Shown one piece after another: positions 17,312-56,709 of a DNA stretch of 64,000 bases. This stretch comes from an uncultured Collinsella sp. (GTDB lineage Bacteria > Actinomycetota > Coriobacteriia > Coriobacteriales > Coriobacteriaceae), in NCBI GenBank assembly GCA_900543645.1, contig UQRZ01000002.1, forward strand, positions 132,969 to 196,968, in the 5' to 3' direction. Numbering within the stretch: the stretch's first letter is position 1; the number at the start of each line of letters is the position of its first letter. The position numbers were made by a program, and so were the translations under genes. The notes beneath the pieces are model-generated. The model was given only the letters and a program-made list of their open reading frames with translations, made no database searches and was not told the DNA's origin.

Positions 17312-17386
17312 GGTGGAGACGAGGGGGATCGAACCCCTGACCTCTTGACTGCCAGTCAAGCGCTCTCCCAGCTGAGCTACGCCCCC
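17312..17386 (-). tRNA. tRNA-Ala (anticodon GGC), copy 1
   Basis: GGGGGCGTAGCTCAGCTGGGAGAGCGC... with a G3:U70 pair. Anticodon loop CTGGCAG and T-loop TTCGATC. Confidence 0.9.
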
Positions 17387-18007: not shown

Positions 18008-18083
18008 GGGCTCTTGGCGCAACGGTTAGCGCAGGGGACTCATAATCCCTGGGTTCTGGGTTCGAATCCCGGAGGGCCCACCA
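18008..18083 (+). tRNA. tRNA-Met/Ile2 (anticodon CAT), CCA encoded
   Basis: Cloverleaf with acceptor GGGCTCT/AGGGCCC, anticodon loop CTCATAA and T-loop TTCGAAT. It lacks the three consecutive G-C pairs of initiator tRNA in the anticodon stem, so elongator Met or lysidine-Ile2. Confidence 0.8.
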
Positions 18084-18291: not shown

Positions 18292-18366
18292 GGTGGAGAC
18301 GAGGGGGATCGAACCCCTGACCTCTTGACTGCCAGTCAAGCGCTCTCCCAGCTGAGCTACGCCCCC
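18292..18366 (-). tRNA. tRNA-Ala (anticodon GGC), copy 2
   Basis: Identical sequence to copy 1. Sits in a 980-bp-offset direct repeat of the whole cassette. Confidence 0.9.
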
Positions 18367-18407: not shown

Positions 18408-18627
18408 GGACAATTTTGGACAATTTTGCGTCGCGTGGAACGGGCGCGGGGCCGAGAGGACCCACGGTACCCGACATAGTCCGCGGGGCTCGGCATGTCG
18501 CCCCAGGTGCCGCCGGCCAGACCAAAGCGATCCGCGGTGCTTCCGGGGACCTGAGCCCTTCCGCACGCCTTCGGACCATTTTCGGAACCGTGCGTAGCTC
18601 GCCCAAGCTGGTCGCTTCATAAACGGA

Positions 18628-20366: not shown

Positions 20367-20441
20367 TGGTGGGCGATACAAGATTCGAACTTGTGACCCC
20401 ATCCGTGTGAAGGATATGCTCTACCCCTGAGCCAATCGCCC
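20367..20441 (-). tRNA. tRNA-Val (anticodon CAC), CCA encoded
   Basis: GGGCGATTGGCTCAGGGGTAGAGC... with anticodon loop TTCACAC and T-loop TTCGAAT. Confidence 0.85.
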
Positions 20442-44983: not shown

Positions 44984-45415
44984 TTACTGGATGCGAGTTC
45001 GGCAGTAGGGGCAGACCTTCCAGTGCGCATCGAGCGGGCGATGGCAGCTGGGGCATACGTTGCGAACCTGGGTATCGCACACCGGGCAGACGACGAAGTC
45101 CTTCTCGATGGGGGCACCGCACTGCGGGCAGGTGCCGTACTGGGCAAGCTGGCGCTCGCGCAGGGCCATGTCCAGCTCCTGCTCCTCGCGGTCGGACGCG
45201 TAGGAGTGCGGGCGCAGGACCAGGTAAGCGATGAGGCCCACAAACGGGATGAGGGCGATGATGCCCCATGCCACGTAGGCGCTGGCGCCGCGGCGGCGAG
45301 CGTCGATGAACACATAGACGACCGACAGCACGTACAGGGCGATGATAAAGCCAACAAAGGCATAGATGACGCCCATAAGCTGCGGCGACATGAGCTCAGA
45401 GATGTACTTGGACAT
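44984..45415 (-). CDS. Membrane protein with PLDc_N-like N-terminal TM domain and C-terminal double zinc ribbon
   Basis: 143 aa. Two TM helices flanking RRRG, and four CxxC pairs at the C-terminus. Confidence 0.55.
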   Translation of the reverse strand: MSKYISELMSPQLMGVIYAFVGFIIALYVLSVVYVFIDARRRGASAYVAWGIIALIPFVGLIAYLVLRPHSYASDREEQELDMALRERQLAQYGTCPQCGAPIEKDFVVCPVCDTQVRNVCPSCHRPLDAHWKVCPYCRTRIQ

Positions 45416-45515: not shown

Positions 45516-45732
45516 ATCTCAATCTGTAACAGGTGGAAGCGGAATCCGGGTCTAGGTGTTACAGATCGAGACACAGGGGTCCCTCCGCGACTTCAATCTC
45601 GATCTGTAACATCTTAGGCCCCAAAACCCCTCTTACTGTTACAGATCGAGACATTCAAAATCCACCGGAAGGTTTGTCTTGATCTGTAACATCTAGAACC
45701 CAAATCCTCGTCTAACTGTTACAGGTCGAGAC
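45516..45732. repeat. Three tandem 80-bp units, each a 16-bp inverted repeat (GTCTCGATCTGTAACA / TGTTACAGATCGAGAC) around a 25-nt variable loop
   Basis: Units start at 45516, 45596 and 45676, an exact 80-bp period. Arms are conserved and loops and linkers are variable. Confidence 0.7.
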
Positions 45733-45875
45733 AAACGGTTGCCGTAGCTGTCGGCAGACGAGCTTGTCGACGTTGCTGGATCTCCCCTCGTCTGCCGTTG
45801 GCGGGTGTTGCGGGGCTGTTCGCCGCATTGCCGCCGCGCTGGGGGTGTGCAGACCGTAGGATAGTCTTATTGACA

Positions 45876-45890
45876 GCCTGTCAACTTATC
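45876..45890. promoter_or_regulatory. Palindromic operator-like site TTGACAG-C-CTGTCAA overlapping the start region of the glpA-like operon
   Basis: 7-bp perfect arms, 10-25 nt upstream of the GTG start and its GGGAGG SD. Confidence 0.35.
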
Positions 45891-45901: not shown

Positions 45902-47380
45902 GTGGCAGAAACGTTTGATATCGCAATTGTGGGCGCGGGCATTACCGGGTGTGCCATCGCGCGGCAGCTCGCGCGATTTGACCTGTCCATTTGCGTGGTC
46001 GAGGCGGCCAACGATGTCGCCCTAGGCGCATCGAAGGCCAACGGCGGCCTGGTACACGCCGGCTACGATCCGTCGCCGGGCACCGTAAAGGCGCAGGTCA
46101 ACGCCCGCGGCTGCGAGCTATATGGCACGTGGGCCCAGGAACTGGGCTTTTTGTTTTGCCGCACCGGATCCATGGTGCTGGGATTTAGCGACGAGGACCG
46201 TGCGCAACTGGAGAAGCTGCGCCAGAATGGCATAGCCAACGGCGTTCCCGAGCTGTCGATTATCGGCCCCGAGCGCATCCACGAGCTGGAACCGCGCGCG
46301 AGTGCCCTGGCCACGTGCGCGCTATGGTGCCCCTCGACTGGCTTTGTCGATCCCTTTGAGGTCGCCATTGCCGCGCTGGAGAACGCCGTCGCCAACGGCG
46401 TGACATTTATGTGGTCTGCGCCGGTGGAAGCGATTGAGGTTGCTGGCGGCGAGGCTACCGACGGGGCTGTGCGCTTTACGCTGGCGACGCCCGCCGGAGA
46501 GGTGCGCTGTCGCTACCTGATCAACGCCGCGGGCAACGGCGCCGCGGACATCTCGCATATGGCGGGCGCCGAAGAGTTTCAGATGGTCTGGCGCCAGGGC
46601 AACATCGTGGTGCTGGACAAGGAGCCGCGGGCGCTCATGCCGCTCTACCCCGTTCCCACGCCGGTGTCCAAGGGCGTTATCGTCACGGGAACCGTGCACG
46701 GCAACACCGTGATTACCGCGACGGCCGCCGTGCGCGAGCCGGGCGACACGCAGACCTATGCGAGCGATGTAAACGCGCTCCTGAACGGCGCGCGCAAGCT
46801 GGTGCCCGACCTGGAGACGCACCGCGTGGTGCGTGCGTTTGCCGGCGGGCGTCCGGTCATTCGGGGAACGAACGACTTCTTTATTGGACAGTCGGCCGTG
46901 GTGCCGGGGCTCTTCCAAGCGGCGGGCATTCAGTCCCCAGGCGTGGCGAGCGCGCCTGCCATTGCCGAGCGTATAGAACTTGTGATGCGTGAGTCGGGCG
47001 TGGAGCTGCGCGAGCGGGCGGACTGGAATCCAATTCGCCGCGAGCCGGACGACTTTGACCGCGCACCGCTGGCGCGCAAGGAGGAGCTGATCGAGTCCGA
47101 CCCCGCGTGGGGGCAGATCGTCTGCCGCTGCGAGACGGTGCCCGAGGCCGAGATAGTGGCCGCGATCCGACGCCACCCGGGCGCGGTTTCGGTCGAGGGC
47201 GTCAAGCGCCGCTGCCGAGCCGGCATGGGTCGGTGCCAAAGCGGCTTTTGCCAGAGCCGCGTGGTGGCGATCCTGGCGCGCGAGCTGGGCTGCGACCCCA
47301 GCGAAGTGCTGTTGGAAGATGCCGGATCTTGGTTGGTCGAGGGACCGCTGAAGGGGGTGCGCCAGAATGGCGACGTTTGA
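45902..47380 (+). CDS. FAD-dependent glycerol-3-phosphate dehydrogenase-like oxidoreductase with C-terminal BFD-like [2Fe-2S] domain
   Basis: N-terminal IAIVGAGITGCAIA FAD motif. C-terminal CRCETV...CQSGFC cysteine cluster. GTG start. Confidence 0.8.
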   Translation: MAETFDIAIVGAGITGCAIARQLARFDLSICVVEAANDVALGASKANGGLVHAGYDPSPGTVKAQVNARGCELYGTWAQELGFLFCRTGSMVLGFSDEDRAQLEKLRQNGIANGVPELSIIGPERIHELEPRASALATCALWCPSTGFVDPFEVAIAALENAVANGVTFMWSAPVEAIEVAGGEATDGAVRFTLATPAGEVRCRYLINAAGNGAADISHMAGAEEFQMVWRQGNIVVLDKEPRALMPLYPVPTPVSKGVIVTGTVHGNTVITATAAVREPGDTQTYASDVNALLNGARKLVPDLETHRVVRAFAGGRPVIRGTNDFFIGQSAVVPGLFQAAGIQSPGVASAPAIAERIELVMRESGVELRERADWNPIRREPDDFDRAPLARKEELIESDPAWGQIVCRCETVPEAEIVAAIRRHPGAVSVEGVKRRCRAGMGRCQSGFCQSRVVAILARELGCDPSEVLLEDAGSWLVEGPLKGVRQNGDV

Positions 47381-55299: not shown

Positions 55300-56709
55300 T
55301 TAGCCGTAGATGCGCTGGGGCTGTTCTTCGCCCTTTACGGAGGCTTCGGTCACGATGACCTTGGCGACGCCTTCCTCGCTGGGGAGGTCGAACATCGTCT
55401 GCTGCAGCACGTCCTCGCAGATGGAGCGCAGGCCGCGGGCGCCGGTCTTGCGGGCGAGTGCCATGCGGGCGATCTCGTGCAGCGCCGCGTCCTCAAACTC
55501 AAGCTCAACGTCCTCGAGCTGGAACATCTTACGGTACTGGCGCACCACGGCGTTCTTGGGCTCGGTCAGAATCGACACCAGATCGTCCTCGTCGAGCGCC
55601 TGCGTCTGGGTGACGACGGGCGTACGGCCCACAAACTCGGGGATCATGCCAAAGGCGTTGAGGTCCTGCGGGAGCACCTGACGCAGCAGGTCGTTCTCGT
55701 CGACCGAAGTGGGGCCGGCGATCTCGGAGTTAAAGCCCACGCCCTTGTTGCCAACACGGTCGGCGATGATCTTATCCAGGCCCACAAAGGCACCGCCGCA
55801 GATGAACAGGATGTTGGTCGTGTCGATCTGCAGCAGCTCCTGCTGGGGATGCTTGCGGCCGCCGGTGGGCGGAACGCTTGCCACCGTGCCCTCAAGGATC
55901 TTCAGCAGCGCCTGCTGAACGCCCTCGCCCGAAACATCGCGGGTGATGGAGAGGTTCTCGGCCTTGCGGGCAATCTTGTCGATCTCGTCCACGTAGATAA
56001 TGCCGACCTGCGCGCGCTCAATGTCGCCATCGGCAGCATTGATGAGCTTGAGCAGGATGTTCTCCACGTCCTCGCCCACGTAACCGGCCTCGGTGAGCGC
56101 GGTGGCGTCGGCGATGGCAAACGGCACCTCGAGGATGCGCGCGAGCGTCTGGGCGAGCAGAGTCTTACCGGTACCGGTGGGACCGAGCAGCAAAATGTTA
56201 GACTTGGCGAGCTCCACCTCGTCCATATCATCGTCGAGCTGCGAGTCAAAGCCGTCGTCAAAGGCCGAAAGCGCAGCACCGCCCTCGATCACGCGGCGGT
56301 AGTGGTTGTACACGGCAACCGACATGGCGCGCTTGGCGTCCTCTTGGCCCATGACATAGGCCGAAAGCTCGGCATAGATCTCGTGCGGCGTCGGCACGTG
56401 CGTAATGACCTGGCGGGCATCGTCCTCGAGCTCAAAGCCCTCGGCCTCAGGATCCACAGCAGGCTGAGACGCAGCCTGGCCGTGGTCGTTAAGGAAGCCC
56501 GGCAGCTTGCCGTTGCGGGCGGCATCCATAAAGTCCGAAGCCAGCGACTCCTCCAAGATCTCGGAGCAGGCGGCAACACACTCGTCGCAGATAAAGATGT
56601 TGGTCGGACCCTTAACAAGGCGGCGAACCTGGCCCTGCTCTTTTCCGCAGAAGGAGCAGCGGATGGGGTTGCCGTTCTCGTCAAAGTTGTCCTGCATGTT
56701 ACCGGCCAT
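55300..56709 (-). CDS. clpX: ATP-dependent Clp protease ATP-binding subunit ClpX
   Basis: N-terminal C4 zinc finger, Walker [13 protein letters not shown] pore loop. Confidence 0.93.

Follow-up and report, generated by a model that had tools for sequence, protein, structure and literature searches.

An 80-bp-periodic inverted-repeat array beside a glpA-like operon as a probable member of a dispersed Collinsella repeat family

The DNA analyzed here (the window) is a stretch of 64,000 nucleotides from an uncultured Collinsella sp. In this window, a gene for a double-zinc-ribbon (DZR) membrane protein stands divergent from a gene for a FAD-dependent, GlpA-like dehydrogenase, which is the first gene of a cluster and is followed by a Pyr_redox_2 gene and then by a DUF1667 gene. 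The gene context given in the preliminary description of this locus, a zinc-ribbon membrane protein gene divergent from a glpA-like operon, was borne out by the domain search. The repeat array that is the subject of this study lies in the spacer between the two genes. The coordinates of the array, its parts and the flanking genes are shown in Table 1.

The array is composed of six arms of the type GTCTCGATCTGTAACA, each with 0 to 2 mismatches, which alternate strictly in orientation, as seen both by reading of the sequence and by a mismatch-tolerant search. The arms form three hairpin units of 57 bp each, consisting of a 16-nt arm, a 25-nt interior and a second 16-nt arm, and the units are separated by linkers of 23 nt, so that unit starts follow an exact 80-bp period. 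In the search, which was a pattern match to GTCTCGATCTGTAACA allowing up to 3 mismatches, the number of matches expected by chance was 0.34 per 64-kb window, and seven matches were reached in none of 100 shuffles. The seventh match in the window, at 55820 with 3 mismatches, is a chance hit. A repeat finder recovered the 80-bp direct-repeat family and the inverted-repeat pairs. Thus, the sequence and the arm search both confirmed the six alternating arms in three 80-bp-periodic units that had been reported for this region. The accompanying claim that the arms are conserved held within the limit of 0 to 2 mismatches, but exact copies of the 16-mer quoted there make up only two of the six arms. 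Similarly, the interiors do vary in sequence as had been stated, but they are related to one another: the loops of units 2 and 3 have about 16 of 25 positions in common, and the loop of unit 1 resembles the reverse complement of that of unit 3 (inverted-repeat pair I1, 57 nt at 79%). The linker-like stretch that follows the last unit differs among the window and loci L006, L009 and L010, and beyond it these loci are again conserved. A search of the window array for promoter-like and terminator-like sites was negative.

Table 1. Positions of the array, its component parts and the two flanking genes in the window.
Feature	Position	Strand	Remarks
Flanking gene, double-zinc-ribbon (DZR) membrane protein	44984-45415	-	PF12773, E = 2.4e-11; context, outside the element
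Unit 1 left arm, ATCTCAATCTGTAACA	45516-45531	+	2 mismatches to GTCTCGATCTGTAACA; fits the family consensus RTCTYRATCTGTAACA
Unit 1 loop	45532-45556	.	25 nt; T-run orientation, opposite to the loops of units 2 and 3
Unit 1 right arm, TGTTACAGATCGAGAC on the + strand	45557-45572	-	0 mismatches
Linker 1	45573-45595	.	23 nt; sequence reading
Unit 2, whole	45596-45652	.	inverted-repeat pair I7: 15 nt, 100% complementary, 25 nt apart
Unit 2 left arm	45596-45611	+	1 mismatch
Unit 2 loop	45612-45636	.	25 nt
Unit 2 right arm	45637-45652	-	0 mismatches
Linker 2	45653-45675	.	23 nt; same linker type at the orthologous position in L007, L010 and L011
Unit 3, whole	45676-45732	.	repeat finder and arm search
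Unit 3 left arm	45676-45691	+	1 mismatch
Unit 3 loop	45692-45716	.	25 nt
Unit 3 right arm	45717-45732	-	1 mismatch
Terminal linker-like stretch past the last unit	45733-45751	.	strain-variable; ends at the conserved GGCAGACGAG
Flanking gene, FAD-dependent GlpA-like dehydrogenase (DAO/Fer2_BFD)	45902-47380	+	first gene of the cluster; context, outside the element

Exact-protein look-ups with the two flanking genes led to orthologous loci on contigs from human-gut metagenomes and genomes. In these relatives the length of the DZR/glpA-like spacer was 325, 486, about 566, about 805 or about 885 bp, and when the spacers were aligned in the 80-bp register they were found to hold 1, 3, 4, 7 or 8 units. 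The distance from the DZR start codon to the first unit was about 100 bp in all related loci, and the array extends from there toward the glpA-like side. Particular types of loop and linker reappear at matching positions across the contigs. From these correspondences and from unit counts of 1 to 8, it is therefore clear that the unit number varies between strains and species by whole-unit steps; variation between strains had been predicted, and the orthologous locus showed it.

Two further palindromic sequences lie in the same spacer. Directly after the array there is a perfect 11-bp inverted repeat, CGGCAGACGAG / CTCGTCTGCCG (45752-45762 and 45787-45797, with a 24-nt spacer), which is kept with few substitutions in all related loci regardless of the unit number and which may be a regulatory hairpin or operator of the glpA-like operon. 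The other, TTGACAGCCTGTCAA (45870-45884), directly precedes the ribosome-binding site of the GlpA-like gene and is likewise kept in the related loci. These two palindromes are nearer to the glpA-like start and are better candidates for control of the operon than the array is.

The same units occur far from this locus. With a hairpin pattern consisting of TCTGTAACA, 24-26 nt and TGTTACAGA, we found matches in GTDB species genomes, in at least 120 blocks of 8 kb each. The blocks belonged to Collinsella apart from a few loosely labelled bins ('bacterium' or 'Acutalibacteraceae'), and those bins contained the same 80-bp arrays. Arrays were also carried by 11 IMG/VR contigs, in which the array was the sole likeness to the window. 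When 144 arrays were clustered by their flanks, 56 flank clusters were obtained, corresponding to about 45-55 distinct genomic contexts, many of them occupied in 5 to 9 different genomes; the same sites are occupied across species. In addition, BLAST found at least 26 array-matching places in the 0.9-Mb PLSDB record NZ_OY725717.1 of C. aerofaciens, one of them a three-unit array between converging RluA-family and DeoR/GlpR-family genes. Extrapolating from this record, a genome of about 2.4 Mb would hold roughly 70 arrays or more and a few hundred arms. The preliminary description had set a dispersed repeat beforehand as the outcome that would count against its reading of the 16-mer, and essentially this is what the related genomes contain. 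As for the record itself (loci L155 and L156; 899,693 bp), it is labelled 'Collinsella aerofaciens plasmid 6', yet it carries recA, ftsK, scpAB, lexA and a ribosomal protein operon; it is a piece of the chromosome that was entered as a plasmid.

The gene contexts of the arrays were classified with a simple GC3-based gene caller, which reproduces the genes of the window. Among the classified arrays, 48 lay between convergent, 40 between divergent and 34 between co-directional genes, and by the same gene calls none of the 144 arrays was inside an ORF. The neighboring genes are functionally unrelated; among them are genes for Nramp, GATase_2 (glutamate synthase), pantothenate kinase, a MalK-type ABC ATPase, MurT/GatD, ClpB, a LacI-family regulator, a GDSL lipase and PTS components. 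Some of the sites are on integrase-bearing elements.

The arms were absent from the 12-20 kb around the orthologous DZR gene in five relatives whose DZR proteins are 74-86% identical, namely Coriobacterium glomerans PW2, Collinsella sp. zg1085 and three metagenomic contigs. In one of these arm-free relatives (L154), the same divergent gene pair is separated by an unrelated spacer of 231 bp that has no array. It therefore appears that the repeat family is restricted to the C. aerofaciens-like group. Within the sampled array-bearing clade, no empty orthologous site was found. Locus L123 was considered as such a site and rejected, because a decayed single unit with a 5-nt deletion in its left arm is present at 399-486, where L044 holds two intact units. 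This case shows that repeat units can erode in place.

The rules of the family were drawn from 450 units. The loop was 25 nt long in 445 of them. Linkers of 23 nt (174 cases) outnumbered those of 24 nt (96 cases), and from start to start the units followed each other at 80 bp (171 cases) or 81 bp (99 cases), which places the arm centers alternately 41 and 39-40 bp apart. The consensus of the arm is RTCTYRATCTGTAACA, in which TCTGTAACA is nearly invariant. A left arm came first in 136 of 140 arrays and a right arm came last in 132 of 140, and true solo arms were essentially absent, since the apparent ones were decayed partners or chance hits. The quantum of the family is therefore the arm-loop-arm unit.

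When the loops are oriented, they read nn-TAG-n6-AAA-n6-CTA-nn. The two orientations are equally common (205 versus 189) and are mixed within arrays, and at a given orthologous position the orientation is stable. We rejected the idea that the loops are invertible, because none of 405 similar orthologous loop pairs was flipped, and likewise the idea that they are self-complementary, because their apparent palindromy comes from mixing the two orientations. Conservation of the linker is limited to an A/T-rich triplet adjoining each arm. About 21% of units have a C directly before the arm, no extension of the stem past the arms was seen in the units, and the hairpins are not followed by a T-run.

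Both gain and loss of units in register can be seen in individual loci. In L042, near-identical neighboring linkers mark the gain of a unit, and L016 has exactly one unit fewer than L018 and L021, a clean deletion that marks a loss. Such changes may arise by slippage or by unequal recombination between same-orientation 16-bp arms 80 bp apart. As a yardstick of neutral change we used the 4-fold synonymous diversity of the DZR gene among genomes with an identical DZR protein, which was 0.11. In the orthologous first unit, the left and right arms had diversities of 0.025 and 0.072, compared with 0.18 for the loop and 0.53 for the linker that comes next. Thus, the arms are at or below the neutral level, a modest result as it comes from 32 sites, and recent homogenization between copies could be an alternative cause of their similarity. 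The loops, and especially the linkers, turn over via replacement of whole units.

We then consider whether the arms are kept as a stem or as a sequence. The variable positions of the arms are 1/57, 5/53 and 6/52. The fraction of Watson-Crick pairs at these positions, compared with random re-pairing, was 0.47 versus 0.53, 0.66 versus 0.67, and 0.52 versus 0.50, respectively; that is, no covariation was found at the variable arm positions. After the units were oriented by their loops, A-C and G-T pairs were about equally frequent, so there was no strand bias of G.T, and the halves of the loop paired less frequently than chance. The predicted folding is strong. As DNA hairpins, unit 2 has an energy of -14.3 kcal/mol (z-score -9.1) and unit 3 of -10.8 kcal/mol, and a single strand of the array region has an RNA MFE of -108.8 kcal/mol (z-score -11). 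However, folding is no worse than that of the nominal hairpin in an alternative register, in which a right arm pairs across the linker with the left arm of the following unit. The region folds strongly because it is made of inverted repeats, and the fold is a consequence of them and is no evidence for a selected RNA. We therefore rejected selection of the hairpin as a structure, on the grounds that covariation and strand bias are missing and that the stem ends at the arms. Together with the mixed orientations and the occurrence of arrays in every gene-orientation context, these results argue against a function at the RNA level and favor the view that what is conserved is the sequence of each arm, at a constant distance from its neighbors.

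Regularly spaced, alternately oriented repeats with fixed linkers are the architecture of BIMEs (PMC2817692), and in a REPIN two inverted copies and a spacer form a larger hairpin (PMC3337134, PMC3116915). The Collinsella family resembles the REP/BIME elements of Enterobacteria and Pseudomonads (BIME-2 arrays, REPIN clusters) in being dispersed, strictly intergenic and hairpin-forming, with alternating regular copies, linkers of fixed length, tandem reiteration and a copy number that varies between strains. Its unit, like a REPIN, has two inverted copies around a spacer. In contrast to a REP, each of which is an imperfect palindrome of 20-40 bp, the 16-nt arm RTCTYRATCTGTAACA has no internal stem-loop. 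Two REP super-families are defined by GTAG or CGTC end tags, and REPs have stems of 5-13 bp and loops of 2-20 nt (PMC3733652, Table 1), whereas neither tag is conserved in Collinsella and its 16-bp stem and 25-nt loop are outside these ranges. Membership in the REP family thus fails on the arm stem-loop, the end tag and the stem and loop sizes. The host is also different, being an actinobacterium (Coriobacteriia). RAYT-associated REPs have a cognate Y1 (HUH) transposase gene, the RAYT, which REPs typically flank. When 1.33 Mb of the DNA retrieved here was searched by tblastn with approximate queries for E. coli RayT and IS200 TnpA, no match had an E-value below 0.4.

The CGTC-1 elements of Neisseria are the dRS3 repeats, which form large clusters (PMC3733652). 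The Collinsella arrays are like NIMEs in that conserved inverted repeats bracket variable interiors in tandem intergenic arrays at many loci, some with integrative elements close by. In a NIME, dRS3 repeats flank variable RS units, so that short conserved sequences bearing inverted repeats surround interiors of varied length (50-150 bp) in tandem intergenic arrays at many loci per genome, with integrative elements nearby; dRS3 is a target of phage integration. The Collinsella spacers, in contrast, are fixed at 25 and 23/24 bp, and the one junction that was looked at is about 75 bp outside the array. This junction belongs to an element with a tyrosine integrase, and comparison with the integrase-free L069 placed the homology break about 75 bp beyond the array, past a terminator-like hairpin. 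At the one junction compared, therefore, the array is not the attachment site of the element, and we rejected it as a prophage attachment site there.

In the IMG/VR contigs, two kinds of integrase were observed, one a protein of 375 aa that matches tyrosine integrases weakly and the other a large serine recombinase of 479 aa. The integrase genes are at 1162-2289 in L016, 2281-3408 in L018, 6407-7534 in L021 and 3691-5130 in L024, and each of them ends about 120-140 bp from the array.

With MITEs the Collinsella unit shares a short non-coding sequence, 16-bp terminal inverted repeats, intergenic dispersal and ends that are better conserved than the interior. It differs from them in that its 57 bp are at the lower size limit and in that it occurs mostly in regular tandem arrays rather than as single insertions. 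No target-site duplication was detected; direct-repeat matches in the flanks, compared with shuffled flanks, had frequencies of 0.14 versus 0.09 for 2 bp, 0.083 versus 0.056 for 3 bp and 0.056 versus 0.056 for 4 bp. Despite the 16-bp terminal inverted repeats, we rejected membership in the MITEs because of this lack. No parent insertion sequence with matching ends was found in the sample. The IS21 copy in L156 was rejected as a parent, since its ends are unrelated, and the genes situated between two arrays (Nramp, an AAA ATPase, DUF4867 and a DUF559-like ORF) include no transposase. In L042 (5004-6098), and likewise in 8 other genomes, a 364-aa ORF lies between two arrays, which are 3 and 9 nt from its ends; it has no Pfam hit, and by eye its C-terminus resembles a DUF559/Vsr-type endonuclease fold.

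A CRISPR has in common with the array a regular period, a conserved repeat, less conserved intervals of fixed length and a unit number that varies between strains. In the Collinsella array, however, the repeats alternate, the 'spacers' have the TAG, AAA and CTA positions in common and are met again at other loci, and a genome has dozens of such loci beside housekeeping genes. No cas domain was present among ten genes scanned around the window array, and the loops and linkers matched none of 50,697 phage records. We rejected a CRISPR on the orientation of the repeats, the nature of the spacers and the lack of a phage match. The expression 'inverse of a CRISPR' in the preliminary description was fair for the layout, but it gave no mechanistic lead, because the loops have fixed positions in common and reappear at different loci.

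Integron attC sites have RYYYAAC and GTTRRRY boxes at the outer ends of an imperfect palindrome of 57-141 bp, with gene cassettes between sites. We rejected this assignment, since the AAC/GTT triplets of the Collinsella unit are at the inner ends of the arms, the boxes match at 5 of 7 positions, and the 23-nt linkers contain no cassettes. Split parS sites and LacI-type operators were rejected on geometry. Among known RNAs, Collinsella-1 is RF01700 (PMC2864571). An Rfam search of the whole window and 18 array-bearing loci at the gathering threshold returned only tRNAs and no Collinsella-1, and in the array region, with E-values up to 10, there were only sub-threshold, chance hits to miRNA-like hairpins. 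Our literature search found no paper with the 16-mer or describing such a repeat in Collinsella. The hairpin-repeat family thus appears to be undescribed, and its geometry is unusually strict.

Taken comprehensively, the array in the window is very probably one locus of a dispersed, genus-specific repeat family and a passenger where it stands. The 'novel small repeat element' that had been listed as an option agrees with the occurrence of the family at about 45-55 unrelated intergenic sites in Collinsella. The family most likely consists of non-coding palindromic repeats broadly akin to REP/BIME, REPIN clusters, NIMEs and MITEs, and most likely it is tolerated only in intergenic DNA. For the explanation as a whole, namely a Collinsella-restricted intergenic palindromic repeat family with in-register turnover, here a passenger, whose arms are read by a protein, we would give a probability of about 0.7. 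According to this explanation, the arms would be kept since a trans-acting protein reads each of them as a sequence at a fixed spacing, with no need of an RNA stem, and the same protein could account both for the conservation of the arms and for the spread of the family. The likeliest candidate for such a reader may be a transposase-like or other DNA-binding enzyme. This part of the explanation, recognition of the arms by a protein that also drives their spread, is a candidate which we put forward tentatively. In the window, the array would be a passenger between divergent promoters, in a spacer that is probably not transcribed, and would have no glpA-specific role.

A more specific proposal is that Coriobacteriia have an undescribed, non-RAYT repeat system of which the arrays form the DNA half and in which a dedicated protein reads RTCTYRATCTGTAACA at the spacing of 41 and 39-40 bp. 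Such a protein might propagate the 80-bp units or use the arrays as chromosome-organizing platforms. If a protein that measures the spacing exists, the near-invariance of the spacer lengths during drift of the spacer sequences would follow from it. We consider this proposal speculative and somewhat unlikely.

Another explanation is that the arrays persist because the cell uses them as DNA architecture, for example in roles like those proposed for REP/BIME: platforms for nucleoid-associated proteins or gyrase, supercoiling buffers, insulators between transcription units, bidirectional terminators or protectors of mRNA 3' ends. A selfish origin would be compatible with it. The filling of the same sites across species with no empty site in the sampled clade, the strictly fixed spacing of the arms, their diversity at or below the neutral level and the strong single-strand folding all speak for such a use, as does the enrichment of arrays between convergent and divergent genes, where supercoils build up. 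However, the unit number is free to vary from 1 to 8 at one locus, and the loci of five relatives do without arms, including L154, which keeps the divergent pair. Against a terminator role in particular, a third of the arrays lie between divergent genes, where a terminator has no use, and the hairpins lack a T-run. In the GDSL-lipase context, moreover, separate terminator-like hairpins flank the array, and thus the array itself is not the terminator there. We therefore think that use as architecture is improbable, and we continue to prefer the passenger repeat family.

It could also be supposed that the array acts in cis at this locus, with the six arms serving as operators through which a regulator controls the divergent DZR and glpA-like promoters. 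The position in a divergent promoter spacer, the constant distance of the first unit from the DZR start codon and the behavior of the arms as sequence motifs rather than stems would suit this supposition. Against it, dozens of unrelated loci have the identical arm type, and 39% of these lie between convergent genes; the earlier suggestion of protein-binding hairpins specific to the glpA-like operon is not supported either. With 1-8 units at the DZR/glpA-like locus itself, and with the separate conserved candidate operators at 45752-45797 and 45870-45884 nearer to the glpA-like start, we regard such a local role as very unlikely. Finally, an array of structured RNAs or sRNAs, in which every hairpin of a transcribed region acts as an RNA and its variable loop is possibly a guide, would fit the layout of conserved stems and variable loops and the strong predicted folding, but this earlier suggestion is hardly credible in view of stems that show neither covariation nor a strand bias of G.U versus A.C, unit orientations that are equally frequent within arrays, an equally good alternative register, an array without promoter-like or terminator-like sites, the lack of any Rfam match including Collinsella-1, the occurrence in every gene-orientation context, and loops that recur between loci with fixed positions and, like the linkers, match no phage.

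Collinsella is an abundant genus of the human gut, which taxonomists have split into very many species. A repeat family with hundreds of arms per genome accounts for some of the breaks in assemblies, and its arrays are ready-made variable-number markers for strain typing. Caution is also needed, in that such arrays should not be read as locus-specific regulators or sRNAs. The present findings extend BIME-like arrays of alternating, regularly spaced repeats to an actinobacterial lineage, with no RAYT found in 1.33 Mb by approximate queries, and lead one to ask what protein would read the arms and keep their spacing constant. At the window locus, the array is an ordinary feature and is most likely a passenger.

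Two minor observations were made on the genes of the window. The amino-acid sequence of the DZR protein (143 aa) was identical in 2644 index blocks of the assembly collection, whereas its GlpA-like and ThrRS neighbors in the same contigs varied in both length and sequence. This conservation is unusually strong for a protein without known function. The other observation concerns four tRNA genes that are clustered in a stretch of about 3 kb in the window, at 17314-17386, 18008-18080, 18294-18366 and 20370-20441. Two of this cluster are on the minus strand and have identical Rfam scores, with short tandem repeats nearby (18049-18063 and 18408-18428), and their identical scores suggest a local duplication.
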